32,730 bases of DNA from Nitrospirota bacterium (GCA_024277515.1 JAJRVB010000311.1:1-32730), one strand, 5' to 3'. Positions 3,229-32,730 are shown, numbered from the stretch's first letter. Notes: generated by a model not told the origin, from the letters alone. Program-made: numbers and translations.

Positions 3229-3492
3229 CTATTTTGCCATCCGGTCAAGCGCCTCTGAAAGCTCGTCCTCGCAATACGAATATGCAAGGTTTGCATCGTA
3301 TACAAACGGCAGACCTTGTATCTGCTTCATTTTTTTCATCTGCTCCTCAATACTTTCGCCCTCTATGGTTACCACGATCTTTCCGTCGGCATCATTAAAA
3401 TGGACTTCACAGGAATCAACAGCGTTTATACTGTCGATGACTTCATGAAGATGCTCCGGTAATGTTTTAACAACGATGCTCGATACATTCAT
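3229..3492 (-). CDS. napD: NapD, Tat-signal-binding chaperone for NapA
   Basis: It is an 87-aa protein with the NapD pattern (IVV...VDSCEVHF...GKIVVTIEGES...I..I..LP.V....LAY). It is the last gene of the nap operon. Confidence 0.8.
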   Translation of the reverse strand: MNVSSIVVKTLPEHLHEVIDSINAVDSCEVHFNDADGKIVVTIEGESIEEQMKKMKQIQGLPFVYDANLAYSYCEDELSEALDRMAK

Positions 3493-3514
3493 AATGATAT
3501 TTCCTTTCCACTGA

Positions 3515-4069
3515 CTACTCTGTCTCTACCCCTTCGTTTAATATGTTAAGTAAATTTGAGCGGTACCGTCCCTGCTCATCCCTGAACTCACCCTTGAAGA
3601 TGTTTTCTACCGCAGGGGTCAGAATATTCTGGATAACATGACACTGCATACAGTTGAATCTGCTGCCGTCAAGTTTGCCCCTCAGGTATGCCCCGGTGTC
3701 CAGGTTAACAAGGTGGGACGTGGGTACCGGGGTCGCTCCGCTGAATACCGCTTCTTCAGGCATGTGGCATCCCATGCATATGTTGTCTTCCTCTATGGGA
3801 AGCATGCCGGTAATGTCATGTGCGATCAATGGAGGACTGTTTTCAAATGACCTCTCGAACCTGACACTTTCTCCCGGTTCTTTCTTTGTTGTCTCCCCGT
3901 GGGCGGGAACTGTCGTGCTCTCATCATAGAGTGTTTCGTGCCTGAGGCCGAGGTCCTCTTCGGAAAAGGTTTCTGTCCGGGTCTGGGGCTGGGCACACGA
4001 AAATAATATTCCTAAAGAGAGTGTCCCGGCCGTTAATAACAATAACCATGTCCTTCTGTTTCTTTCCAT
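3515..4069 (-). CDS. napB: NapB, dihaem cytochrome c subunit of periplasmic nitrate reductase
   Basis: It has a signal anchor, two CXXCH motifs (CMGCH, CMQCH) and the PPLIAH motif. The size and operon position fit NapB. Confidence 0.8.
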   Translation of the reverse strand: MERNRRTWLLLLTAGTLSLGILFSCAQPQTRTETFSEEDLGLRHETLYDESTTVPAHGETTKKEPGESVRFERSFENSPPLIAHDITGMLPIEEDNICMGCHMPEEAVFSGATPVPTSHLVNLDTGAYLRGKLDGSRFNCMQCHVIQNILTPAVENIFKGEFRDEQGRYRSNLLNILNEGVETE

Positions 4070-4072
4070 AAT

Positions 4073-4894
4073 TCATCCCTCCTTACATTTAGTATGAATT
4101 TTATTTGAATATATGTTTATGAAATTTACTGCGTCATCGTCACATACTTCAATGCATCTGCCGCAATTTACGCATTCTCCGGAGACCACGGCCCCGCTCT
4201 CCCTGCCTACCATATGCAGGACCTGTTTTTCAGGACAGATTTCTATGCATTTCATACATGAAGTACATTTTTCACGGTCATATCCTATCCGGAGAAAACC
4301 GAAACGGCCTATGATCGAGTAAAAGCCGCCGAGCGGACAGATGTGGCCGCAGAAGCCGTTTTTTACTGCAAACAGGTCGAACAGAAAAACCATGAGAACT
4401 AATGTCCAGCCAAAACCGAACCCGTATATAATCCCCCTGTGCAGGGCGCCGATCGGACTTATCCACTCAAAGGCCGCTACCCCGAGGATGACTGACAGTG
4501 CTACCGACAAGAAAATAATCCAGTAACGCGTCGCTCTTTTTATGTCCCACGACTTCCAGACGGAATCCAGACTGAAGAGTCTTCTGAGTCTGTTGGCAAG
4601 GTCTGTCACCATGTTTACCGGACATGCCCAGCTACAGAATACTCTCCCACCGAGGACAGCGTAAAAGAGCAGGATGACGAGCGCGCCTGTTACGGCATCG
4701 CTGGCAATGACGGCGCCTGCGGAAAAGCTTTGCAATACTGCAAAGGGGTCGGACAGCGGGATTGTATCGAAGACCCTCGCAGAACTAAGGTTTCCCCTCA
4801 GTACGCTCCAGCCGTATGCGTTTCCCCCGAAAAATACGAAAAGAATTCCTGTTTGCAGAAGCCTTCTCGGTATCTGGTATTTATATTTTCTCAT
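4073..4894 (-). CDS. napH: NapH, membrane quinol dehydrogenase ferredoxin subunit
   Basis: It has four predicted TM helices, CxxCP motifs (CSWACP, CGHICP) and two C-terminal 4Fe-4S motifs (CTSCMKCIEICP, CVNCGRCIEVC). Confidence 0.85.
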   Translation of the reverse strand: MRKYKYQIPRRLLQTGILFVFFGGNAYGWSVLRGNLSSARVFDTIPLSDPFAVLQSFSAGAVIASDAVTGALVILLFYAVLGGRVFCSWACPVNMVTDLANRLRRLFSLDSVWKSWDIKRATRYWIIFLSVALSVILGVAAFEWISPIGALHRGIIYGFGFGWTLVLMVFLFDLFAVKNGFCGHICPLGGFYSIIGRFGFLRIGYDREKCTSCMKCIEICPEKQVLHMVGRESGAVVSGECVNCGRCIEVCDDDAVNFINIYSNKIHTKCKEG

Positions 4895-4931
4895 ATCTAT
4901 CCTGCATGCAGGGGCAATTCATGAATTGCCC

Positions 4932-5714
4932 CTACAGTTCGTCATTCAGATAATCAAGGGCCTTCCGGCCGCTCCTGGGCGTCTGTGTAGTGACTTTTTC
5001 CGTTGCTTCCTTCATACGCTCTTCATCCTGTTCATCCCAGCCCTTTATATAGCGTTCGCTCGACTGACCCATCGCTATTTCCTTCGGCAGTACGAAAATT
5101 GATGCCTTCCGGGTAACACAGGCCCTTTCGCAGAGGCCGCATCCTGTACAGGCATCACTGTGAACAACGGGCGCCTGTATTGTATGTTTTCCTGTCCTGA
5201 CGTTTCTTGTGTATTCAACAGTGATCGCCTTGTCGATCAAAGGGCATGCACGGTAGCAGGCGTCACACTGAATACCTGCATATGCAATACAGATTTCCCG
5301 GTCAATGACGGCGATGCCCATTTTTGCCATGTTAATATTGAGCCTTAATTCACCATCTTCGCCTTTTTCACTGACGAGTGTTTTATCAAGGGATCCGGTG
5401 GGGCAGACTGGCACACAGGGAATGTCCCTGCACATATAACAGGGGTTTGTCCTCGGCGTGTAGTATGGGGTCCCTACCGGTTTGCTATCTCCCGGTTTTG
5501 CGAGGACCAGCGCGTCATAGGGACATGCCTCGACACACATCCCGCATTTTATGCAGGAGGCAAGAAAATCTTTTTCCGGCAATGCACCGGGTGGCCGCAA
5601 TATCAGCGGTGCGGACCTGCCTTCCTCTATAAAGCCGCTCCAGGCAAGTCCGCCTGTAGCAGCCAGCCCCAGGCTCTTGAAGGTCTTCAGCAGAAATTCT
5701 CTACGTTCAGGCAT
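4932..5714 (-). CDS. napG: NapG, Tat-exported poly-ferredoxin
   Basis: It has a twin-arginine signal (MPERREFLLKTFKSLGLAATGG) and four Cys clusters of 4Fe-4S type. A GAGGTGAGG Shine-Dalgarno precedes ATG 5714, so the longer track ORF (to 5804) is probably an over-extension. Confidence 0.85.
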   Translation of the reverse strand: MPERREFLLKTFKSLGLAATGGLAWSGFIEEGRSAPLILRPPGALPEKDFLASCIKCGMCVEACPYDALVLAKPGDSKPVGTPYYTPRTNPCYMCRDIPCVPVCPTGSLDKTLVSEKGEDGELRLNINMAKMGIAVIDREICIAYAGIQCDACYRACPLIDKAITVEYTRNVRTGKHTIQAPVVHSDACTGCGLCERACVTRKASIFVLPKEIAMGQSSERYIKGWDEQDEERMKEATEKVTTQTPRSGRKALDYLNDEL

Positions 5715-5825
5715 CCTCACCTCATTCTTTTGCGTTTTCTTTTCATGCATCTCAGTAACATTAACTTTATTCCTTAGCCATGTAGTTGGTAGATAGCAGC
5801 ACATAGTTAGGGGAAAAGTCCCATA

Positions 5826-5867
5826 CTACTTGCTACTGACTACTGTCTACTGACTTCTGTCTACTTC
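5826..5867 (-). repeat. six phased heptamers (plus strand CTACTNN; sense strand NNAGTAG) in the napA-napG spacer
   Basis: CTACT occurs at 5826, 5833, 5840, 5847 and 5861, with a degenerate CTTCT at 5854, giving a strict 7-nt period. The array begins 13 nt after the napA stop codon. Confidence 0.6.
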
Positions 5868-5879
5868 TTTTTTCCTTCC

Positions 5880-8654
5880 TCATGCTTTATAAACCTTTAC
5901 CGCGCATTTCTTGAAATCCGTCTCTTTTGACATGGGACATGTTGCATCAAGAGTTACTTTATTGATCAGGACACGTTCGTCAAACCAGGGTACGAAGATC
6001 AAACCTTTCGGAGGGCTGTTTCTCCCTCTGGTATTGATCCTTGACTTGACCTTTCCGCGCCTTGATTCTATCCATATCAGCTGGCCGTCTCTAAACCCGT
6101 TTGATTCCGCGTCGTTCGGGTGCATGAAGCATACAGCCTCCGGAGCTGCCCGGTAGAGTTCAGGCACGCGCATGGTCATCGTACCGCTGTGCCAGTGCTC
6201 CAGCACCCTCCCGGTACAGAGCCACAACGGATATTCACTGCTGGGTATTTCCGCAGCTTCGGCGTAATGTCTGAGGAATATCTTTGCCTTGTTCGGGAGC
6301 TTGAGTTTTTCCAGCTCCTTCCTGGGTCCCTTCAGGTCCCCCTGTGCTATGGCCTTCAATGCCTTGCCGTAAAAAGCGAACTGTCCGGTGTTTGCCTTTC
6401 GTGCATAAGGATCGTAGTCTGCATTAAATCTCCATGGGGTTTCCTTGCCGTTTACAACGGGCCATTTCAGACCCCTGACCTTATGGTAGGTGTCGAAATC
6501 CGCAAGATCATGTCCGTTGCCGATACCGAACTTCCTGTATTCTCCCCACAAATATTTCTGAATGAAAAAACCGTAGCCCTTGAAGCCCTCAACGTCCCTC
6601 TTGTCTCCGGCTGCTTCACTATTCAAAAATCCTTTTCCTACAGGGTCAGGCCATTTATATGATTTTGCCTCCTTGTTGGCGTACAGGACGTCATATAATG
6701 TGTCCGTGTCCTTATATCCCATTGCCCTTGCCTTGGCCATAACATCTGGAAGGGTAACCTTGTCATTGATCTTATGGGCCTTCCAGACTTCGGCCAGTGT
6801 AAACCTCTTCGAAAATTCCACGGTCTGCCAGGTGTCTGACATTGCTTTCCCGACAGGTGTGACCTGCTGTCTCCAGTGCTGGGTCCTGCGCTCGGCATTA
6901 CCATAGGCCCCCCATTTTTCGAATATCATGGCAGTGGGGAGGATCAGGTCCGCAACCTTTGCGGAAATCCCGGGATATACCTCTGACACCACGATAAAGT
7001 TGTCCATTTCCCTTGCCGCCTTGATCCAGTGGTTCATATTTGCCGTATTCTGCCAGGGATTGCATACCTGTACCCATGCCCACTTGATCTTTCCGTCTTC
7101 AAGGTCTCTCATTATTTTTGTATAGTGTGAGCCCACGACCGGATTGAGTGTGCCTTCAGGCAGTTTCCAGAGCTTTTCAGATTTTTTTCTGTGTTTTGGA
7201 TTGAATACGACCATATCCGACGGGAGTCTGTGCGCGAATGTCCCGACTTCCCTTGCTGTCCCGCACGCGCTCGGCTGGCCGGTGAGGCTGAACGGACTGT
7301 TGCCCGGCTGCGCAATCTTGCCGAGCAGGAGATGTACCATATACATCTGTTCATTGACCCATGAACCCCTCACATGCTGGTTAAATCCCATGGTCCAGAA
7401 ACTGCTCACCTTTCTGTCTTTGGCCACGTAGTATTCAACAAGTTTTTTCAGCTTGTCCTTAAACTCTGAGAGGGACTCGTCAGAGTCTCCCTTGGCAAGT
7501 TCAGCGACAAAATCCAGGGTGTAAGGCTCAAGCCCCTTTTTGAAATCATCAAAGCTGATCGCCCAGTGCTTGACCGGTTTCTTTGTATTTTTCATCCGGA
7601 GCGTGGAACCGGCCTTTATACCGAGGGAGCTCCATGCATGGGCTTCTTCTTTGGTTACTGTTTTGGATGCTTCCCTGGCTGCCGTATCGAGCTCGCCCGG
7701 TCTGTATTTTGGATGATCAATCCTGGAACGCATTCCATAACCAATATCTACAGGGCCTGTCGCGAATACACAGTACCTGTCAACGAAATCCTGGTCTATA
7801 GCTTCAGGCCGGTTGTATACTATTTCCCTGGCTATATAATTAAGGAGCGCGAGATCGGTGTTAGGTTTAATAATGATTTCAATGTCCGATATGTTGGAGC
7901 ATCTGTTTCTGAATGTGGATATATTGACCAGCTTTACCCAGTCCGGTCTGCTCAGTTTCCTGTCTGTAATTTTTGACCATAATACGGGATGCATCTCCGC
8001 CATATTGGCGCCCCAGAGGACGATTGAATCGGCAAAATGCATATCATCATAGTTGCCTGCAGGTTCATCTATGCCGAATGTCTGTATAAACCCTACCACA
8101 GCGCTTGCCATGCAGTGGCGGGCATTCGGATCAATATTATTGCTTCTGAACCCCCCCTTAACGAGTTTTACCGCGGCTACCCCTTCCTGGACTGTATATT
8201 GACCTGACCCGAAGACCGATATGCCTTTCGGTCCCAGTTCAGAGTAATACTTTTTGAACTGATTTGCCATTTCATCGAAGGCCCGTTCCCATGTGACCGG
8301 TCTGAATTTACCGTTTTTATCGAACTCACCCGCATCGTTTACCCTTAAAAGAGGATCGGTCAGCCTGTCTGCGCCGTACATGATCTTTGCATTAAAATAT
8401 CCCTTTATACAGTTTAACCCCATGTTTACGGGTGCAAGCGGATCACCTTTTACCGCAACGATCATATCATTTCTGGTTGCGATCATGATGCCGCATCCGG
8501 TACCGCAAAACCTGCATACCGCCTTGTCCCATCGCCAATCTGCCTGTGTCTCGGCTGCAACAGCCTTTAAATTATCCGGCACGGACAGTCCGATAGCTGT
8601 TGCGGCGCTTACTGCAGCCGTGGTTTTCAGAAAGTCCCTTCTTGACACTTTCAT
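5880..8654 (-). CDS. napA: NapA, periplasmic nitrate reductase catalytic subunit (Mo-bisMGD, 4Fe-4S)
   Basis: It has a Tat signal ([22 protein letters not shown]) and the N-terminal CRFCGTGC 4Fe-4S motif. The 924-aa long form is followed by napGHBD. A GGAGGG RBS precedes the ATG. Confidence 0.95.
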
Positions 8655-8794
8655 AGTTTCCCTCCTTTGTAATTATGTTCATTCATTAAATGTTTCGGAA
8701 TATATTTTATAACTGCCCGGTTATTTTTTTCTGCATCAATGTTTGCGGGGTGGGGGACCATTACCTTCATGTCTTCAAACATAACAATATTTCC

Positions 8795-8832
8795 TGTAAA
8801 TATGATGTTAATGTGTGTAAAGAAAATGTTAA
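8795..8832 (-). promoter_or_regulatory. candidate response-regulator operator upstream of napA: four TGTWAA hexamers at 11/10/11-bp spacing
   Basis: The plus strand reads TGTAAATATGATGTTAATGTGTGTAAAGAAAATGTTAA. It consists of two 21-bp tandem units (16/21 identical). It matches the reverse complement of 11410-11447 at 34/38 positions. It lies 140 nt upstream of the napA ATG in the napA/kinase divergent region. Confidence 0.6.
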
Positions 8833-9029
8833 TTTTCAGGGATGCGCAAAATAACGAAAAAATATCATGAAACAATTATTGCACGGCCGGGGGCGAATGC
8901 ATAGATCATTAATACGATTATAAACAATACTTATAATTAAGCTGCCATGCCGCTGTTACCCGGACTTTTGCATTCCTTATGGATTTGACTTGGAGAGAAG
9001 CAGATTCTAAAATCTCTATTAAGGATAAT

Positions 9030-10688
9030 ATGAATACAATAAAGTCACTGCTAAGACAATTCAGGGCCCTCCCGATCAGCCTCAGTCTCAAGTTTGTTAT
9101 CGGCGTTGCCGTCGCATTGTCCATAGTGATGGGAATATCACTCTATTTTATTAATGAGAACCATGAAAGGCTTGTCATGAAACAGGTCGATATTCAGGCT
9201 AAGGCCCTGTTCCAGCAGATTGTCCTCACCCGCAAATGGATTGCGGACCATGGCGGTATTTTTGTGGAACAGGCCCCCTGGAAGACGCCGAGTCCTTATA
9301 TTACTGAACCGGAAATTGTTGATCTGCAGGGAAGAAAATATATGAAGCTGACACCGGCCATGGTCACAAAGGAACTCTCAACATATGCAAAGGAGAAAGG
9401 GCTCTATTCGTTTCATATTACAAGCCTTAAGCTCATTAATCCTGAAAATGCACCGGATGACTTTGAAAGGGCCGCCCTTAAGGAATTCGAGATGAAGGTG
9501 ACAAAAGAAACGAGCAGGGTTGAAGAAAAAGGGCCTGATTATTTTTACAGATATATAGCGCCTCTTTATATTGAAGAAGCCTGCCTCAAGTGTCACGCCC
9601 ATCAGGGCTACAAGATCGGAGATGTAAGAGGGGCAATCAGTGTTTCCGTCCCGATGAACTCCGCGCTCCTGATGATCCGCTCCGGAAAGAGGGGGCTGAT
9701 TCTTACGAGCGGTCTGACAATAGGAGTTCTGATGATCGTGCTTTATGTGATGATGAAAGAGCTTGTATTGAGACCGGTCCATGAGTTGAAGAACTCTATC
9801 AAGGGTTTTTCACGCGGCAAAATATCTCATACGGATTTTATCAACACAGGAGATGAACTGCAGGAGTTGAGCAACTCATTTGCTGAAATGTCACAAACGC
9901 TGACTAATTATCATTCTGACCTCGAAAACAGGGTCCATATGGCGACTGCCGGGCTTGAAAAGGCGAATGAACGGCTTACGGAACTGAACGAAAAGAAGTC
10001 TGATTTTATCGCGCAGATTTCGCATGAATTGAGAACGCCGATGACATCTATCAAGGGCGCAATGGACTATATTTCAGCAAAGATCGCGCGGGATGGAAAC
10101 GATGCTGACGACCTGATGGAGTTTCTGGATGTCATTAAAAATAATGCGGACAGGCTCATCAGAATGGTCAACGATACCCTCGATCTTGAACGCATAGAAT
10201 CCGGAATGTTTGACCTGCATTATGACCATTTCGACCTGCTCTCTCTTGTAAAAGAGGTGATAATAAGTTTTCAGACCATTACGAATGAACGGAATATTGT
10301 GTTTAACATAAAGGCGCGTTCCGATATTATCGTGAATGCTGATCAGGACAGGATTAGGCAGGTACTGATAAATCTGGTGTCGAATGCGATCAATTACAGC
10401 CCTGATAATGCTGATGTTCAAATTACCGTTACGGAAACAGGTGACAGCGTGAAGGTAACCCTTAAAGACGAGGGGCCGGGTATCCCTGCTGATGTACAGG
10501 AAAAAATATTTGATAAATTCTATACAATAGGCAAGAGATACGGGACAGGGCTGGGACTCGCGATATGCAGGGGCATCATTGAAGCACACAGGGGAGTGAT
10601 CCGGGTTGAGAACATTCCGGGACACAAAGGGAGCGCTATTTATTTCAGTATTCCCAAAAACGGCGGGGCAAAAGATAACGGTGATTAA
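9030..10688 (+). CDS. sensor histidine kinase with extracytoplasmic haem-c (CXXCH) sensor domain, HAMP, HisKA, HATPase
   Basis: There are two TM segments flanking a ~200-aa domain that ends in CLKCHAHQGYKIGDVRGAISVSVP (from memory, a DUF3365-like domain). The H-box is HELRTPMTSI, with N/G boxes further on (NAINYS, DEGPGI, GTGLGL). An AAGGA RBS precedes ATG 9030. Confidence 0.8.
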   Translation: MNTIKSLLRQFRALPISLSLKFVIGVAVALSIVMGISLYFINENHERLVMKQVDIQAKALFQQIVLTRKWIADHGGIFVEQAPWKTPSPYITEPEIVDLQGRKYMKLTPAMVTKELSTYAKEKGLYSFHITSLKLINPENAPDDFERAALKEFEMKVTKETSRVEEKGPDYFYRYIAPLYIEEACLKCHAHQGYKIGDVRGAISVSVPMNSALLMIRSGKRGLILTSGLTIGVLMIVLYVMMKELVLRPVHELKNSIKGFSRGKISHTDFINTGDELQELSNSFAEMSQTLTNYHSDLENRVHMATAGLEKANERLTELNEKKSDFIAQISHELRTPMTSIKGAMDYISAKIARDGNDADDLMEFLDVIKNNADRLIRMVNDTLDLERIESGMFDLHYDHFDLLSLVKEVIISFQTITNERNIVFNIKARSDIIVNADQDRIRQVLINLVSNAINYSPDNADVQITVTETGDSVKVTLKDEGPGIPADVQEKIFDKFYTIGKRYGTGLGLAICRGIIEAHRGVIRVENIPGHKGSAIYFSIPKNGGAKDNGD

Positions 10689-10699
10689 AAGGAGAAACT

Positions 10700-11383
10700 T
10701 TGAACAACAGGATACTGGCAGTAGATGATGATAAAGATATACTGAAAGTCCTGAAGGCAAACCTCGAACTTCACGGGTATGATGTGTATACGGCGGAGAA
10801 CTGGACAGAAGGACGGGAATCGTTGTCTGTATACATGCCTGACCTTATCATTCTTGATGTTATGCTGCCTGACGGAGATGGGACCGAGATCTGTCGTGAC
10901 GTCAGGAAAGAGATGCCTGATATCCCCATAATTATGCTGACTGCGAAAGACAAGGTCTCAGATAAAGTGTTCGGACTCGAGAGCGGCGCTGATGATTATG
11001 TGGTAAAACCGTTTGAGACACTTGAACTGGTTGCCCGGATCAAGGCGTGTCTTCGCAGGGTGCCTGTACCGGCTGCTGAAGACAAGGTGACCATAGGGGC
11101 ACTGAAAGTCGACTGCAGAAAGCGGCTTGTATCCGTATCAGGGAAACAGGTTGCGCTCACCCCCAAGGAATACGACCTGCTCTGCTTTTTTATAAATCAC
11201 CGGGGGGAAGCGGTAAGCCGTGACTCGATCAGAAAAAATATCTGGAAGGGCTCGCATATCTATTCATGGAGCAGAGTGATAGATGTTCATATTCAGCATC
11301 TCAGGCAAAAAATTGAAAAAGACCCCTCAAATCCCCGATATATCTTAACGGTGCCCGGTGCGGGTTACCGGTTTGCCGACTGA
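10700..11383 (+). CDS. OmpR/PhoB-family response regulator (receiver + winged helix)
   Basis: The receiver domain shows DDDKD...D(54-like)VMLPDGDG...K, and the C-terminal winged helix ends in LTVPGAGYRF. The start is TTG, preceded by AAGGAGAAAC. Confidence 0.9.
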   Translation: MNNRILAVDDDKDILKVLKANLELHGYDVYTAENWTEGRESLSVYMPDLIILDVMLPDGDGTEICRDVRKEMPDIPIIMLTAKDKVSDKVFGLESGADDYVVKPFETLELVARIKACLRRVPVPAAEDKVTIGALKVDCRKRLVSVSGKQVALTPKEYDLLCFFINHRGEAVSRDSIRKNIWKGSHIYSWSRVIDVHIQHLRQKIEKDPSNPRYILTVPGAGYRFAD

Positions 11384-11409
11384 CGATATTACTTTCTACT
11401 CTCAAGGTC

Positions 11410-11447
11410 TTTACATCTTCTTTACACACATTAACAGCACATTTACA
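11410..11447 (+). promoter_or_regulatory. second copy of the four-hexamer operator, upstream of the NapD-like/HAO-like operon
   Basis: The plus strand reads TTTACATCTTCTTTACACACATTAACAGCACATTTACA. Its reverse complement is 34/38 identical to 8795-8832. It lies 116 nt upstream of ATG 11564 and has the same orientation relative to its operon as the nap copy. Confidence 0.6.
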
Positions 11448-11563
11448 AAGAAATCTGATAAAAAATAATTAGTATTGCGGTATCGAAAATTATCCGGTTT
11501 CATCCCGATACATCGGGACATTTTTCTAACTGCATTACCCTGATTAATGGAAATGGGGAGAGC

Positions 11564-11839
11564 ATGGTAGTTGCAAGCGGAATTATCGAGATAGAAGACA
11601 TGAATGATCTGCAGAACATTGTTGCTGCTTTAAAAAATAACAGGGTGGAAATCAATGATATTGATTCAGCAAACATTCTATTTATTCTCGAGAGAGAAAA
11701 TATCGGTGAAGTAAAGGGTGAGATAGAGTCTGTAAAACAGATAGCGGGAGTTAAACATGTGCATATCACATATTACAGCATGGAGGGCATGGATGACGGG
11801 ACAGAACCAGGGGGCAGCGAGAAAGAAAGCAGCAGGTGA
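11564..11839 (+). CDS. NapD-like small protein (paralogue of the napD at 3229-3492)
   Basis: This 91-aa protein shares the hydrophobic/acidic pattern of NapD (IIEIED...VEIND...ILFILERENI...I..I..I.GV.HV.I.YY). The GGGGAGAG RBS fits. The assignment is by eye only. Confidence 0.45.
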   Translation: MVVASGIIEIEDMNDLQNIVAALKNNRVEINDIDSANILFILERENIGEVKGEIESVKQIAGVKHVHITYYSMEGMDDGTEPGGSEKESSR

Positions 11840-11961: not shown

Positions 11962-13422
11962 ATGAAAAAAATGATAACCCTGGCAATTGCCGCCTGTATC
12001 CTGGCACTGGGAACAAGCGCATATGCCATCACAAAGATCAACATCCCGAAAGACGTGTCAAAGACCAGCCAGGAATGCATTGAGTGCCACAAAGCGACAA
12101 CGGTCAACATTTACCAGCAATGGGGCAACAGTAAACATTTTCGCGCCAATGTCGGGTGTTATGAATGCCACGAGGCCAAGAAGGGCGAGTCGGATGCATT
12201 TGAACACGAAGGTAAATTCATTTCCATTATTGTATCTCCGAAGGATTGCGCAAGATGCCATGAGAGGGAAGTTGATGAATTTACCAATTCACATCATGCC
12301 AAGGCAGGAAGGATCATGGGATCTCTGGACAATATTCTTGCTGAGGTTGTCGAAGGCAACAGGGGCATGATAACAGAGGCTTTCCCCCGCGGTGTTTCTG
12401 CTGCTGCAGTCAACGGTTGCTGGCAGTGCCACGGCTCTGTTGTGAAAGTCAATAAAGACGGGAGGCTTGACCCGGCCACCTGGCCTAACACCGGTATGGG
12501 AAGGGTAAACCCCGACGGTTCGGAGGGTAGCTGTACAGCATGTCACCAGCGCCATGAATTCTCGGCTGCACAGGTCCGCCAGCCGGGGAACTGTGGTAAA
12601 TGCCATCAGGGGCCGGACCATCCACAATATGAGATATATAAACTTTCAAAGCATGGAATTAGCTATTTCGCCAACATGGATGATATGAACCTCGATTCTC
12701 CCAAATGGATTGTTGGAGAAGATTATTCTATAGCGCCTACATGTGCAACCTGCCATATGTCGGCTACCAGTGATATGCCTGTCACTCACAACGTGGGTCT
12801 GCGTATCAAGTGGAACAACCGTCCGCCGCGGATTAAACAGGCCCACGAGACGGATAAGAGGTGGGGACTGGCCTCCGCCAAAATTACAGGCGACATGCGT
12901 AAGGCAAACATGGTCAAGGTCTGTGTCAACTGTCACGGCGAAAAATTTGTGGAAGGCTTTTACATTCAGTATGAAGCCCAGCTGCAACTCTACGATAAGA
13001 AATGGGCAGAACCCGGCTTAAGGCTCTATAAAAAGGCTACAGAAGTTCTAAAGGCCATGCAGGGCAAAGAATACGCCAAGTTTTCCCAGAAGATTGACTA
13101 TACATGGTTTGAGCTCTGGCACCATGAGGGTCGAATTGTTCGCCATGCAGCATCCATGATGGGACCGGATTATACACAATGGGAGGGCAACTATATCTTA
13201 GCCAAAAACTGGTATAGCGAGTATATTCCGGAGTTAAAAGAAATCATCGAAGAGGCCAAGCACAGTAATCGTAAGGCCAAAAAGCTTGGAGGCGAATTAG
13301 AGAAGATGCTCACTGAGATTACGAATAATGACGATCACAAGTGGTCCATCGGTAAAGAAGATGCCGCAGTTAAAGCAGATCGTAAGAAACGCCAAAAAGA
13401 GTTTAAAGCTCGTTATAAATAG
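11962..13422 (+). CDS. octahaem cytochrome c, hydroxylamine oxidoreductase (HAO/epsilon-Hao-like) family
   Basis: It has a Sec signal peptide (ALGTSAYA) and eight CXXCH motifs (CIECH, CYECH, CARCH, CWQCH, CTACH, CGKCH, CATCH, CVNCH). The block GRVNPDGSEGSCTACHQRHEFS...CGKCHQGPDHPQYEIYKLSKHG and the WHHEG motif recall HAO-family proteins. A strong AAGGAGGGG RBS precedes the start. Confidence 0.65.
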   Translation: MKKMITLAIAACILALGTSAYAITKINIPKDVSKTSQECIECHKATTVNIYQQWGNSKHFRANVGCYECHEAKKGESDAFEHEGKFISIIVSPKDCARCHEREVDEFTNSHHAKAGRIMGSLDNILAEVVEGNRGMITEAFPRGVSAAAVNGCWQCHGSVVKVNKDGRLDPATWPNTGMGRVNPDGSEGSCTACHQRHEFSAAQVRQPGNCGKCHQGPDHPQYEIYKLSKHGISYFANMDDMNLDSPKWIVGEDYSIAPTCATCHMSATSDMPVTHNVGLRIKWNNRPPRIKQAHETDKRWGLASAKITGDMRKANMVKVCVNCHGEKFVEGFYIQYEAQLQLYDKKWAEPGLRLYKKATEVLKAMQGKEYAKFSQKIDYTWFELWHHEGRIVRHAASMMGPDYTQWEGNYILAKNWYSEYIPELKEIIEEAKHSNRKAKKLGGELEKMLTEITNNDDHKWSIGKEDAAVKADRKKRQKEFKARYK

Positions 13423-13724: not shown

Positions 13725-13871
13725 ATATGACATCTAAATTTTATTTATAATAATGCCGAATACATTGTATGAGGTAAAGCAGCCCTACGAGGCGAACAAG
13801 CCTAACCGTCTGATATTACACATTATTATTTTATATATGGATTTTATTTAAAAAAATAGCATACACTACTT

Positions 13872-14615
13872 ATGATTATGATGATTCTGGTCTTTTTGTT
13901 ATCAATACTGTTCATCCCGTCTGTGGCTGACGCATGGGCGCCCCTCACACATGTATATCTTGGATATCAGGTGCTCGATTTTGGCGCTGCCCTTATCCCT
14001 GCCGGCATTTATACCCTCTTAAGGAAATACAGGAATGATTTTCTGTATGGAAATCTGAGCGCTGATATCATACTCGGCAGGAGGTTTCAGGGGATCGAGA
14101 AAAACTCCCATAACTGGGACATTGCATGGAAACTGTTCGGATCAGCCAAAACGGACCGTCAGCAGGCCTTTGCCTATGGCTACCTGATGCACCTGTGTGC
14201 TGATACCGTCATACATAACATGGAAAAATCAAGCATCCCTTTCAGCCACTCCCTGATTGAGATAAAGGCTGACAGCATTGTCGACAAGAAATACAGGAGG
14301 ATCCTGAAACGGCTTGACAAGGCAATGCAAAAAAAGAATGATGTCTTTATGGAGAGAAAACTTGAGAGTCTTTTCTTTTCTTTCAAGACGAACAAGAGGA
14401 TATTCAAGGGAATGCTCGTCCTGTCAAGACTGCCCAATTACACACCCGTATCGAATTTTATTGATCATCGCTTTCCATACAAAATTACTGTGGGGGACAT
14501 CTATAACTTCCGGCAGGAGTCCCTGGACCGCATGGTCGAGCTGTTAAACAATGGAAGAGATTCTGAAGTGCTGAAAGACCATCCGCTTGGACGATATCAG
14601 CGAAAAGCCTCTTAG
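13872..14615 (+). CDS. secreted zinc-dependent phospholipase C / S1-P1 nuclease superfamily protein
   Basis: The signal peptide ends in VADA followed by WAPLTH, so the mature N-terminus would be Trp, as in Zn-PLC and P1 nuclease. His/Asp-rich motifs are present (YGNLSADI, YLMHLCADTVIHN). Confidence 0.5.
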   Translation: MIMMILVFLLSILFIPSVADAWAPLTHVYLGYQVLDFGAALIPAGIYTLLRKYRNDFLYGNLSADIILGRRFQGIEKNSHNWDIAWKLFGSAKTDRQQAFAYGYLMHLCADTVIHNMEKSSIPFSHSLIEIKADSIVDKKYRRILKRLDKAMQKKNDVFMERKLESLFFSFKTNKRIFKGMLVLSRLPNYTPVSNFIDHRFPYKITVGDIYNFRQESLDRMVELLNNGRDSEVLKDHPLGRYQRKAS

Positions 14616-14764
14616 AATTAATGCATCATAACCATCTCCGTATATTCAAATCCATATTCCATTTCAAACATCCAGATGAGCGGTATATTGTGTTTTTGAC
14701 TGATTTTTGTTAGGATTTTAGCTCATTCGAGAGAGCAATATACTGAAAAGAGGATTGTAATTAC

Positions 14765-16903: not shown

Positions 16904-16990
16904 TGGTGCCGAAGGGGGGATTCGAACCCCCACAGGCTTGCGCCTACTAGACCCTGAACCTAGCGCGTCTGCCAGTTCCGCCACTTCGGC
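16904..16990 (-). tRNA. tRNA-Leu (anticodon CAG), class II with long variable arm, CCA encoded
   Basis: It was folded by hand. The acceptor stem is GCCGAAG/CTTCGGC and the D stem is GCG/CGC. The anticodon stem CTAGG/TCTAG carries the loop TTCAGGG. There is a 15-nt variable arm, and the T arm is GGGGG-TTCGAAT-CCCCC. The discriminator is A, followed by CCA. Confidence 0.9.
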
Positions 16991-32150: not shown

Positions 32151-32347
32151 ATTTAAATTATATTCAATATAGACTTAAACTTCAAATTATTTGTTGTTTA
32201 TTATTTGTCTGACCTAACGGTATCTATACTAAGCAGAACGGGAAAAGTGTTCAGCCCTGCCTTTGATAGAAAATTATATACTTCCCTGACAGAGTTGTAC
32301 AGGAAAAAATACAAAAAAGGTCTACGACTCGATCCGAGAGGGAAGTT

Positions 32348-32488
32348 ATGAAGAGGAAGAAGACAGTGAGTTACAGGAAGCACCAGGAGAGAAAGCGCAA
32401 GATAGCGGGGATGAAGGTAATCGGGATTGATCCGGCGAAGGAGAAGCATCAGGTGACTGTGCTGTTTGATTATGGAAATACTTTGTAA
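32348..32488 (+). pseudogene. IS110-family transposase N-terminal stub
   Basis: MKVIGIDPAKEKHQVTVL (32411-32464) resembles the conserved start of IS110-family DEDD transposases. Similarity stops where the RelE-like gene ends (32470), and a stop follows at 32486. Confidence 0.5.
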
Positions 32489-32730
32489 ATGTCTTTTCGA
32501 TGTGCAACTCGTTGACAGATTAACACTTTTGTGGTTTTGTCTATTGCGATGCCTATTCTATATTTACCGATTCGGATTTTGTATCTGTCTGGATAACCTG
32601 TCATACGTTCGAGATATCTGAGATCGAAAGGATTAGAAGACAATAGTTCCCCAAAAACTATTTTTTCGGCTTGAACTCGTATTTCATTGGGTAACTTGGA
32701 AAGTTCTTTGAGAAAACGTTTTGTATATTC
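32470..32730 (-). CDS. RelE/ParE-family toxin, N-terminus beyond window edge; not in the supplied ORF track
   Basis: Hand translation gives EYTKRFLKELSKLPNEIRVQAEKIVFGELLSSNPFDLRYLERMTGYPDRYKIRIGKYRIGIAIDKTTKVLICQRVAHRKDIYKVFP*. The canonical RelE motifs are present (YRIRIGKYRI...HRKDIYK). Confidence 0.8.
   Translation of the reverse strand, partial: EYTKRFLKELSKLPNEIRVQAEKIVFGELLSSNPFDLRYLERMTGYPDRYKIRIGKYRIGIAIDKTTKVLICQRVAHRKDIYKVFP

Follow-up and report, generated by a model that had tools for sequence, protein, structure and literature searches.

A conserved 38-bp operator-like element beside a haem-c Cache two-component system points to a nitrate-ammonification regulon in Nitrospirota

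The DNA analysed here, referred to below as the window, is a stretch of 32,730 nucleotides, an entire NCBI contig, from a Nitrospirota bacterium (GCA_024277515.1 JAJRVB010000311.1:1-32730). It contains two copies of a 38-bp element, one in front of an operon for periplasmic nitrate reductase (nap) and the other in front of an operon for a NapD-like protein and an octahaem cytochrome of the HAO family. The genes of a two-component system, a sensor histidine kinase and an OmpR/PhoB-family response regulator, lie between the two copies. Our preferred reading, which we hold at roughly three chances in four, is that the elements are tandem activator operators of the adjacent phosphorylated regulator, located in the nap and NapD-like/HAO promoters. 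The description that fits the element best is that of a pho-box-like activator site with four hexamers, belonging to a conserved nitrate-ammonification regulon in anaerobic Nitrospirota, with binding predicted from sequence comparison. The principal features of the locus are as follows (PWM, position weight matrix; ORF, open reading frame).

3229–8654, minus strand: target operon 1, napAGHB-napD, encoding periplasmic nitrate reductase and a NapGH quinol dehydrogenase module (assigned by Pfam/NCBIfam)
8795–8832, minus strand: nap operator array, TTAACA (8832–8827)-N5-TTTACA (8821–8816)-N4-TTAACA (8811–8806)-N5-TTTACA (8800–8795); PWM score 55.6 bits
9030–10688, plus strand: sensor histidine kinase; ORF open from 8979, with ATG 9030, preceded by AAGGA, as the likely start
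10700–11383, plus strand: OmpR/PhoB-family response regulator with a receiver and a winged-helix Trans_reg_C domain; presumed binder of both arrays
11410–11447, plus strand: NapD-like/HAO operator array, TTTACA (11410–11415)-N5-TTTACA (11421–11426)-N4-TTAACA (11431–11436)-N5-TTTACA (11442–11447); PWM score 55.9 bits
11564–13422, plus strand: target operon 2, NapD-like ORF and octahaem HAO-family cytochrome
11564–11839, plus strand: NapD-like ORF (weak match, under the Pfam and NCBIfam cut-offs)
11962–13422, plus strand: octahaem HAO-family cytochrome, 486 aa, with eight CxxCH motifs

Read directly from the window, the nap-side element at 8795–8832 is TGTAAATATGATGTTAATGTGTGTAAAGAAAATGTTAA, and the HAO-side element, 11410–11447 in reverse complement, is TGTAAATGTGCTGTTAATGTGTGTAAAGAAGATGTAAA. 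The two 38-mers are alike at 34 of 38 positions; a repeat search of the window returned them as inverted-repeat arms of 38 nt with 89% complementarity. Along the direction of transcription each copy follows the pattern TTWACA-N5-TTTACA-N4-TTAACA-N5-TTTACA, i.e. both have the same orientation relative to their operons. The nap-side element precedes the napA ATG (8654, minus strand) by 140 nt, and the HAO-side element, which begins 27 nt beyond the regulator stop codon, precedes ATG 11564 by 116 nt. OmpR/PhoB-family regulators bind head-to-tail repeats of about 10–11-bp periodicity, and the four hexamers of each array are indeed arranged head to tail, with periods of 11/10/11 bp. The two sequences reported in the initial annotation of this region were letter-for-letter correct on re-reading. 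The same is true of its count of 34 identical positions, which agrees with the repeat search, of both distances and the like orientation, and of its placement of the nap copy in a region shared with the kinase promoter, namely the 375-bp intergenic region between napA and the kinase gene.

In the window, the pattern TGTWAA-N5-TGTWAA-N4-TGTWAA-N5-TGTWAA is matched by these two copies and nowhere else; 100 dinucleotide-preserving shuffles gave no match. No further copies were added by a window-wide search that allowed up to three mismatches to the 38-mer consensus. A PWM scan of the window revealed the two arrays and one weak match at 32452–32490 (9.8 bits). The latter has the AACAGCACA core in common with the arrays and abuts the start of a small minus-strand ORF (32201–32449). 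Since there is no promoter room before this ORF, the match was taken as chance.

Relatives of the locus were gathered by a scan of metagenome contigs with an alignment of the kinase sensor domain only. This yielded 80 loci, in which the sensor domains are 49–71% identical to that of the window and the whole kinases 44–70%. An exact protein look-up contributed two NCBI genomes, of which one is complete, for 82 loci in total. About 10 kb on each side of the kinase gene was examined per locus. The control DNA comprised 1.24 Mb around 80 unrelated kinases (27–41% identity, many phyla) obtained in a scan with a whole-kinase alignment. Sites matching at least 20 of the 24 hexamer positions numbered 49 in the 0.79 Mb of orthologous DNA (80 loci) versus 0 in the control. 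The PWM scores were bimodal: 46 sites reached at least 30 bits in the orthologous loci, while none in the control reached 8 bits. Like sites were present in both added NCBI genomes. The spacers of 5, 4 and 5 nt are kept without variation across about 50 sites, and a search of the loci for variant spacings (outer 4–6, middle 3–6) returned only off-register re-matches of canonical sites. The initial annotation had proposed looking for the element upstream of nap and hao orthologues in relatives; it is present there, with its spacing and orientation kept.

The inverted pair bracketing the kinase and regulator genes superficially recalls terminal inverted repeats. A non-regulatory origin, be it chance likeness, a dispersed REP/MITE-like element or a duplication remnant flanking the two-component system, is nevertheless scarcely credible. 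An exact-pattern scan of 2.9 million viral contigs gave 11 matches, all of them unrelated, simple tandem repeats of 10–11 nt. These lack the non-hexamer consensus, on which they score −5 to −20 versus +10.4 for true sites. Frequent copies in unrelated contexts, which the initial annotation had named as the observation that would speak against its proposal, were thus seen neither in the control DNA nor in the viral contigs; a mobile repeat should occur in many such copies, whereas the element has two in 32.7 kb of the window. Also, the similarity stops at the borders of the 38-mer, while the inner structure and the distance to the −10 region described below are kept across orthologues of 45–73% identity and before different target genes, and single copies occur where only one target adjoins the two-component system. 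Taken together, the control, shuffle, PWM and viral-contig results indicate that the element is neither a chance likeness nor a dispersed repeat, and the mobile-repeat explanation was rejected because control DNA and viral contigs contain no true copies.

The relation of the element to the promoter was deduced from an alignment of 40 non-redundant sites with their flanks, numbered from the array start (position 1). Several columns that were not used in site selection are nonetheless conserved, namely C11, C20, C29, A30 and A32. Downstream of the array, the conserved columns T47, G48, T50, A51 and T55 form the motif TGnTAnnnT, an extended −10 element. TAnnnT starts at position 50, i.e. 12 nt after the array, in 32 of the 40 sites, and any other offset occurs in at most four; it is preceded by TG at −15/−14 in 24 of 40. 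The last hexamer is separated from TG by 8 nt and from TAnnnT by 11 nt. Since the columns between and beyond these positions carry no information, the conserved geometry does not simply reflect close relatedness. If transcription starts about 7 nt past the −10 element, as predicted, the array would span approximately −61 to −24, with hexamers at about −61, −50, −40 and −29. The third and fourth hexamers lie 22 and 11 bp from the −10 element, and neither is workable as a −35 element. Positions 27–32, which have the 17-bp spacing and typically read AKCAYA, match TTGACA at 0–4 of 6 positions, mostly at 2–3. The array thus stands at a fixed position, as is typical of OmpR/PhoB-type operators, relative to a promoter predicted from the sequence. 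By analogy with PhoB at pho boxes, it takes the place of the −35 element, which is the anatomy of an activator-dependent promoter. In the window, the predicted promoter elements are:

8778–8786, minus strand: predicted extended −10 element of the nap promoter, TG at 8786–8785, one base, TATGTT at 8783–8778
11456–11469, plus strand: predicted −10 region of the NapD-like/HAO promoter, TG at 11456–57 and TAAAAA at 11459–64 (conserved register), with an overlapping AATAAT at 11464–69

With the nap start predicted at about 8771, some 117 nt of 5′ leader would precede the napA ATG. On the HAO side, a consensus scan suggested an alternative promoter, TTTACA-16-AATAAT, with 16 nt between the last hexamer and AATAAT; transcription is predicted to start at approximately 11471–11476.

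The same regulator and operator could also act by repression, with binding at the −35 region keeping nap and hao off until a signal removes the regulator. The array does span the −35 position, the alternative TTTACA-16-AATAAT promoter of the window is plausibly regulator-independent, and RpaB sites near the start site repress (PMC6525291). Yet RpaB sites centred about 50 nt upstream activate, and activation is still possible with a site at −41 to −24 (PMC6525291). The TG-extended −10 element combined with a poor −35 at 17-bp spacing is, moreover, the signature of activator-dependent promoters. Repeats that abut the −10 element, with two boxes reaching −61, correspond to the established geometry of PhoB-type activation. 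We therefore consider repression unlikely and activation the preferred mode.

All sites in the orthologous loci are oriented toward a gene. One target is napA of the 924-aa type (80–92% identical), found in eight loci by the gene downstream of the site and in ten when the divergent napA-kinase loci are counted. Other sites precede a NapD-like ORF followed by an HAO-like cytochrome or, in one locus, by a Nap-like enzyme; an HAO-like cytochrome directly (47–79% identical); or NrfA-related octahaem cytochromes of about 555–590 aa with 6–7 CxxCH motifs and an active-site CxxCK (Cytochrom_C552, E down to 1e-49). Further targets are nrfH, which in locus L138 belongs to a canonical nrfH-nrfA pair (C552 E=5e-162), and a Nap-type molybdoenzyme of 772–817 aa, for which the best NCBIfam model is NapA, with scores under the cut-off. 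A few sites stand before other genes, namely those for a GltD-like Fe-S flavoprotein, a porin-like protein and small unknown proteins. What stays constant across these loci is the two-component system together with the function (conversion of nitrate via nitrite to ammonium), while the nitrite reductase is swapped for non-orthologous enzymes among lineages. Because function is constant even though the nitrite reductase differs, the element appears to be the mark of a regulon and not inherited neutral sequence. The initial annotation had proposed co-regulation of nap and the HAO-like operon through an operator for the adjacent OmpR-type regulator, and this comparative evidence backs the proposal strongly. 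Its small regulon of nap and HAO holds with respect to co-regulation, which the conserved placement supports, but seems too narrow, as the predicted regulon of relatives adds octahaem NrfA-like cytochromes, nrfHA and the second Nap type.

Two of the less usual targets deserve a description. In locus L092, a full-strength array at 12077–12114 precedes a gene for a GltD-like Fe-S/FAD oxidoreductase (Fer4_20 + Pyr_redox_2) located downstream of the HAO gene. In locus L137, a full-strength array at 12356–12393 precedes a gene whose product, longer than 354 aa and carrying a signal peptide, is porin-like by sequence impression alone. Possibly these are extra regulon members, providing for example an electron donor or a pore for nitrate/nitrite uptake. 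In locus L108 (12343–14734), an IS3-type transposase (ORF 13807–14649) is located downstream of the regulator gene, and a second array at 14676–14713 faces the insertion, with no gene left behind it. This array looks like a regulon promoter orphaned by the insertion sequence.

The array hexamer agrees with the half-site consensus of WalR/VicR, TGTWAH-N5-TGTWAH (PMC4168254), and with that of RpaB, which recognises (G/T)TTACA(T/A)(T/A) direct repeats (PMC6525291). Of 53 orthologous loci, 27 have a site in the HAO-side orientation no more than 250 nt downstream of the regulator gene, starting 10–200 nt past the stop codon. Given the repeat type characteristic of the family, the half-site known from relatives and the position of the site beside the regulator gene in a sample drawn by the kinase only, the adjacent regulator is the obvious candidate binder. 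The element may instead be a genuine operator of another OmpR/PhoB-family regulator encoded elsewhere, with adjacency reflecting only synteny with nap and hao. TGTWAA/TTWACA half-sites are common to several subfamilies, including WalR and RpaB, so that specificity is unreadable from the hexamer alone; also, half of the orthologous loci show no site in the examined DNA. We regard this explanation as very unlikely, as the loci were gathered via the kinase sensor domain and not via nap or hao, and the sites adjoin the regulator gene despite differing targets. The two-component system is the constant partner of the site, while the target varies (HAO-like, ONR, nrfH or short Nap).

The nap-side copy could also, or mainly, serve positive autoregulation of the divergent kinase-regulator operon, as the initial annotation had suggested by adding that the regulator perhaps controls itself. 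Its location in the napA-kinase intergenic region would permit this, and autoregulation is established as common in two-component systems. However, a site upstream of the kinase gene was found in 10 of 10 loci with a divergent adjacent napA and in 0 of 58 without; orthologous nap-side sites were also present in L172 and L173. The nap-side copy faces nap and lies at the fixed distance from the nap-side −10 element. The candidate kinase promoters (8909–8937 and 8985–9013) begin at least 77 nt past the array, the centre of which would thus be beyond about −130. Because it is present only where napA adjoins, the nap-side copy is assigned to the nap promoter; autoregulation is quite unlikely, and this part of the earlier proposal was not supported.

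In the kinase, two transmembrane segments enclose a periplasmic Tll0287-like/DUF3365 (sCache_heme) domain; HAMP, HisKA and HATPase domains come after it. The periplasmic domain matches Pfam PF11845 with E=2e-23 (83.8 bits vs a cut-off of 24.1); HisKA and HATPase_c exceed the Pfam cut-offs, and the HAMP match is weak. A haem-c motif, CLKCH, is present in the sensor domain, and C185, C188 and H189 are invariant across 24 orthologues. By these characters the protein is an sCache_heme (Tll0287-like/DUF3365) sensor kinase, with haem attachment and ligand binding predicted. Among the best 120 matches, kinase orthologues share 59–73% identity and come from metagenome-assembled genomes labelled Nitrospirota, Nitrospirae or Nitrospiraceae.

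The sCache_heme domain has been described as a Cache domain with covalently bound haem c that is enriched in Nitrospirota among other phyla, and members fused to signalling modules show properties of NO sensors and not of O2 sensors (PMC12889525, a February 2026 preprint). That work and its follow-up give no target genes and no DNA motif and never mention nitrate or nitrite. A literature search of incomplete coverage, in which absence is not proof, found no work tying DUF3365 or haem-c sensor kinases to nap, nrf or hao. Judged from the regulon, it is reasonable to suggest that the kinase senses NO or nitrite arising from nitrate respiration; redox sensing is equally possible.

The receiver domain of the regulator matches Pfam Response_reg over the full profile length (E=2.7e-28), and residues D9–D11, D53, T81 and K103 are seen in the translation. 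Its C-terminus matches Trans_reg_C (E=4.5e-25) at profile positions 1–77 of 77. The nearest solved structures of the DNA-binding domain, aligned end to end, are those of MtrA, RegX3, VicR and KdpE. The NCBIfam scores were 221 bits for RpaB (cut-off 330), 216 for MtrA (300), 209 for PhoB (296), 208 for YycF (340) and 184 for OmpR (331). As all of them are under the equivalog cut-offs, the regulator represents a distinct subfamily and is an orthologue of none of these proteins.

From the sequence of the element, its conservation and geometry, its targets and the domain make-up of the two proteins, we infer binding by the regulator, activation and the nature of the signal. In the circuit that we propose, the four TTWACA half-sites, spaced by 11/10/11 bp and all on the same side of the helix, would accommodate two dimers of the regulator. 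The promoter would be weak alone; recruitment of RNA polymerase by the regulator would switch it on, as is known for PhoB at pho boxes. One array-promoter unit would drive napAGHBD and the other the NapD-like/HAO-like operon, so that nitrate reduction and the step from nitrite or hydroxylamine to ammonium would be turned on together. The input would be the periplasmic haem-c Cache domain, most plausibly reporting NO or nitrite (or the periplasmic redox state) during nitrate respiration. In a broader form, dissimilatory nitrate reduction to ammonium in Thermodesulfovibrio-like Nitrospirota may have its master switch in this kinase-regulator pair, which would sense NO/nitrite and activate nap together with the resident ammonifying reductase (HAO-like, octahaem NrfA-like or NrfHA). 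This extension is tentative, with slightly more doubt than confidence attached to it.

Several observations weigh against the proposed circuit. The orthologous loci without a site in the examined DNA make up approximately half of all; most are distant orthologues or have a convergent gene after the regulator gene. Because of them, the two-component system and the site are strongly linked, but not in every locus. An array over the −35 region could equally block RNA polymerase. The −10 element of the HAO promoter in the window, TAAAAA, has no final T and is overlapped by the self-sufficient-looking TTTACA-16-AATAAT. Finally, the haem domain could report redox state and not a nitrogen oxide.

Two further features of orthologous loci were recorded. 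On inspection of the sequence, tandem units of about 52 nt (…CAGCTTTACACCCTTCGGGCATAAGTTTCGTTTGAGCAGGCGAGCTGCTCAACT…) directly follow the regulator gene in two distant orthologous loci, L149 (~12380–12580) and L153 (~12470–12620). In L095–L097, L109, L144 and L159, the convergent gene after the regulator gene is the end of an operon with NapD-like, NapH-like and NapG-like genes and a distant molybdoenzyme, about 29–33% identical to NapA. No operator was found in the examined DNA of this group, in which the upstream end of the operon lies beyond the contig or the flank.

The closest architectural parallels are known from phosphate regulation. The pho boxes of Escherichia coli (pstS, phoA, ugpB) consist of direct repeats of about 11 bp, and neighbouring boxes in tandem are offset by about two turns of the helix. 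Some 10 bp separate the end of the array from the −10 element downstream of it; the array replaces the −35 element, which makes the promoter activator-dependent. The present element shares with pho boxes the OmpR/PhoB-family regulator, the repeats of about 11 bp and, as predicted from the sequence, an array abutting the −10 element in place of −35. It differs in the half-site, which is TGTWAA versus CTGTCAT and is oriented opposite to transcription, so that the coding strand shows TTWACA. The regulator is, as noted, not an orthologue of PhoB, the regulon concerns nitrate/nitrite and not phosphate, and the kinase is of the haem-c Cache type.

The nearest architectural match is the core binding region of Bacillus subtilis PhoP, which comprises four TT(A/T/C)ACA-like repeats with a period of about 11 bp, located at about −60 to −20 of Pho-regulon promoters on the coding strand and occupied by two PhoP dimers. 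Its architecture, hexamer and orientation are practically like those of the present element, a likeness to be taken as a lead. The two systems differ in sensor, signal, regulon and phylum.

WalR/VicR (YycF) has an identical half-site with the same 5-nt spacer (PMC4168254), and the VicR domain is among the nearest solved relatives of the regulator. It differs in using two hexamers versus four here, in the lack of a fixed promoter geometry and in controlling an essential cell-wall regulon in Firmicutes; the YycF score is under the cut-off (208 vs 340 bits). The cyanobacterial HLR1 site of RpaB likewise consists of direct repeats with a TTACA core, and its effect changes with where it lies with respect to the start site (PMC6525291). 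RpaB is also the best-scoring NCBIfam model for the regulator, although under its cut-off (221 vs 330 bits). HLR1 has, however, only two 8-nt repeats, 2 nt apart (10-bp period), and is involved in light/redox control of photosynthesis genes.

The functional parallel is NarX-NarL/NarQ-NarP of Enterobacteria, where a periplasm-sensing two-component system co-induces the periplasmic nitrate reductase and the ammonifying nitrite reductase (PMC12285233). NarX and NarQ sense nitrate/nitrite by a haem-free four-helix P-box domain, in contrast to the haem-c Cache domain of the present kinase. NarL and NarP are members of the NarL/FixJ family, and their binding sites are heptamers, usually arranged as 7-2-7 inverted pairs, whereas four direct hexamers and an OmpR/PhoB-type regulator are found here. 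The direct hexamers, together with a Trans_reg_C domain and not a GerE/LuxR-type helix-turn-helix, do not correspond to the heptamer operators of the TACYYMT type, for which no formal scan was made. With the sCache_heme sensors the kinase shares the PF11845 domain and the invariant CxxCH in a family enriched in Nitrospirota (PMC12889525). Output genes are absent from that literature; with the present locus, one subfamily of the kinases would gain an output regulon.

To our knowledge, nothing is known about the control of nitrate ammonification in the environmentally abundant anaerobic Nitrospirota. This control is understood almost only in Enterobacteria, where it involves FNR, NarXL/NarQP and NsrR (PMC12285233). 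A 2025 review of nrf regulation lists only these, Fis and IHF (PMC12285233). The locus described here offers a testable circuit consisting of a 38-bp operator (11/10/11 periods, fixed distance to an extended −10 element), a candidate regulator and targets for both steps of the pathway. It also suggests a purpose for one large subfamily of haem-c Cache (sCache_heme) sensor kinases. If the proposed circuit is true, the sCache_heme sensor family would gain its first assigned output regulon and DNA motif, and the circuit would be a nitrate/nitrite control system unrelated to NarXL/NarQP, NsrR or Crp/Fnr-type regulators. Since the element is in kind a classical OmpR/PhoB-type operator, the advance would lie in the regulon; the mechanism is a known one. 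The motif is of immediate use for annotating regulons in metagenome-assembled genomes, including the candidate NapD-like, GltD-like and porin-like members.

The gene content of the two target operons agrees with these assignments as follows. The napA gene (5880–8654, minus strand) scores 1393 bits against the NCBIfam NapA model (cut-off 904). Downstream of it on the minus strand are napG, napH, napB and a NapD-like gene, in this order; the NCBIfam scores are 346 bits for NapG and 361 bits for NapH, NapB is matched in Pfam, and the NapD match is weak. The nearest solved structures of the HAO-family cytochrome are 4qo5 (E=1e-48) and then Nitrosomonas HAO. The protein is presumed to be an ammonifying nitrite or hydroxylamine reductase; an exact look-up of its sequence returned no recorded contig. 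The NapD-like ORF and the cytochrome gene were read as one transcription unit because the window contains no second array between them.

A NapD-like ORF heads the HAO-like cytochrome operon in many relatives, for example at 8188–8424 in L083, 12600–12824 in L091, ~9660–9890 in L100 and 12671–12880 in L172. In L089, an ORF of this kind (6648–6890) stands before a NapA-like gene (51% identical). NapD is the chaperone of Tat-exported NapA, and the HAO-like multihaem cytochrome carries a Sec-type signal peptide. The NapD-like ORF may be a relic of a nap operon or a chaperone with a newly acquired client.

Within the predicted 5′ leader of the NapD-like/HAO operon, there is a terminator-like hairpin at 11503–11518 (TCCCGATACATCGGGA followed by a T-run). 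A structured leader or riboswitch in this region was considered and rejected: the fold is no better than that of shuffles (z = −0.49), Rfam gave no match, and leader lengths vary widely among loci. The sole Rfam or ARAGORN match in the window is a tRNA-Leu(CAG) gene at 16904–16990 on the minus strand.

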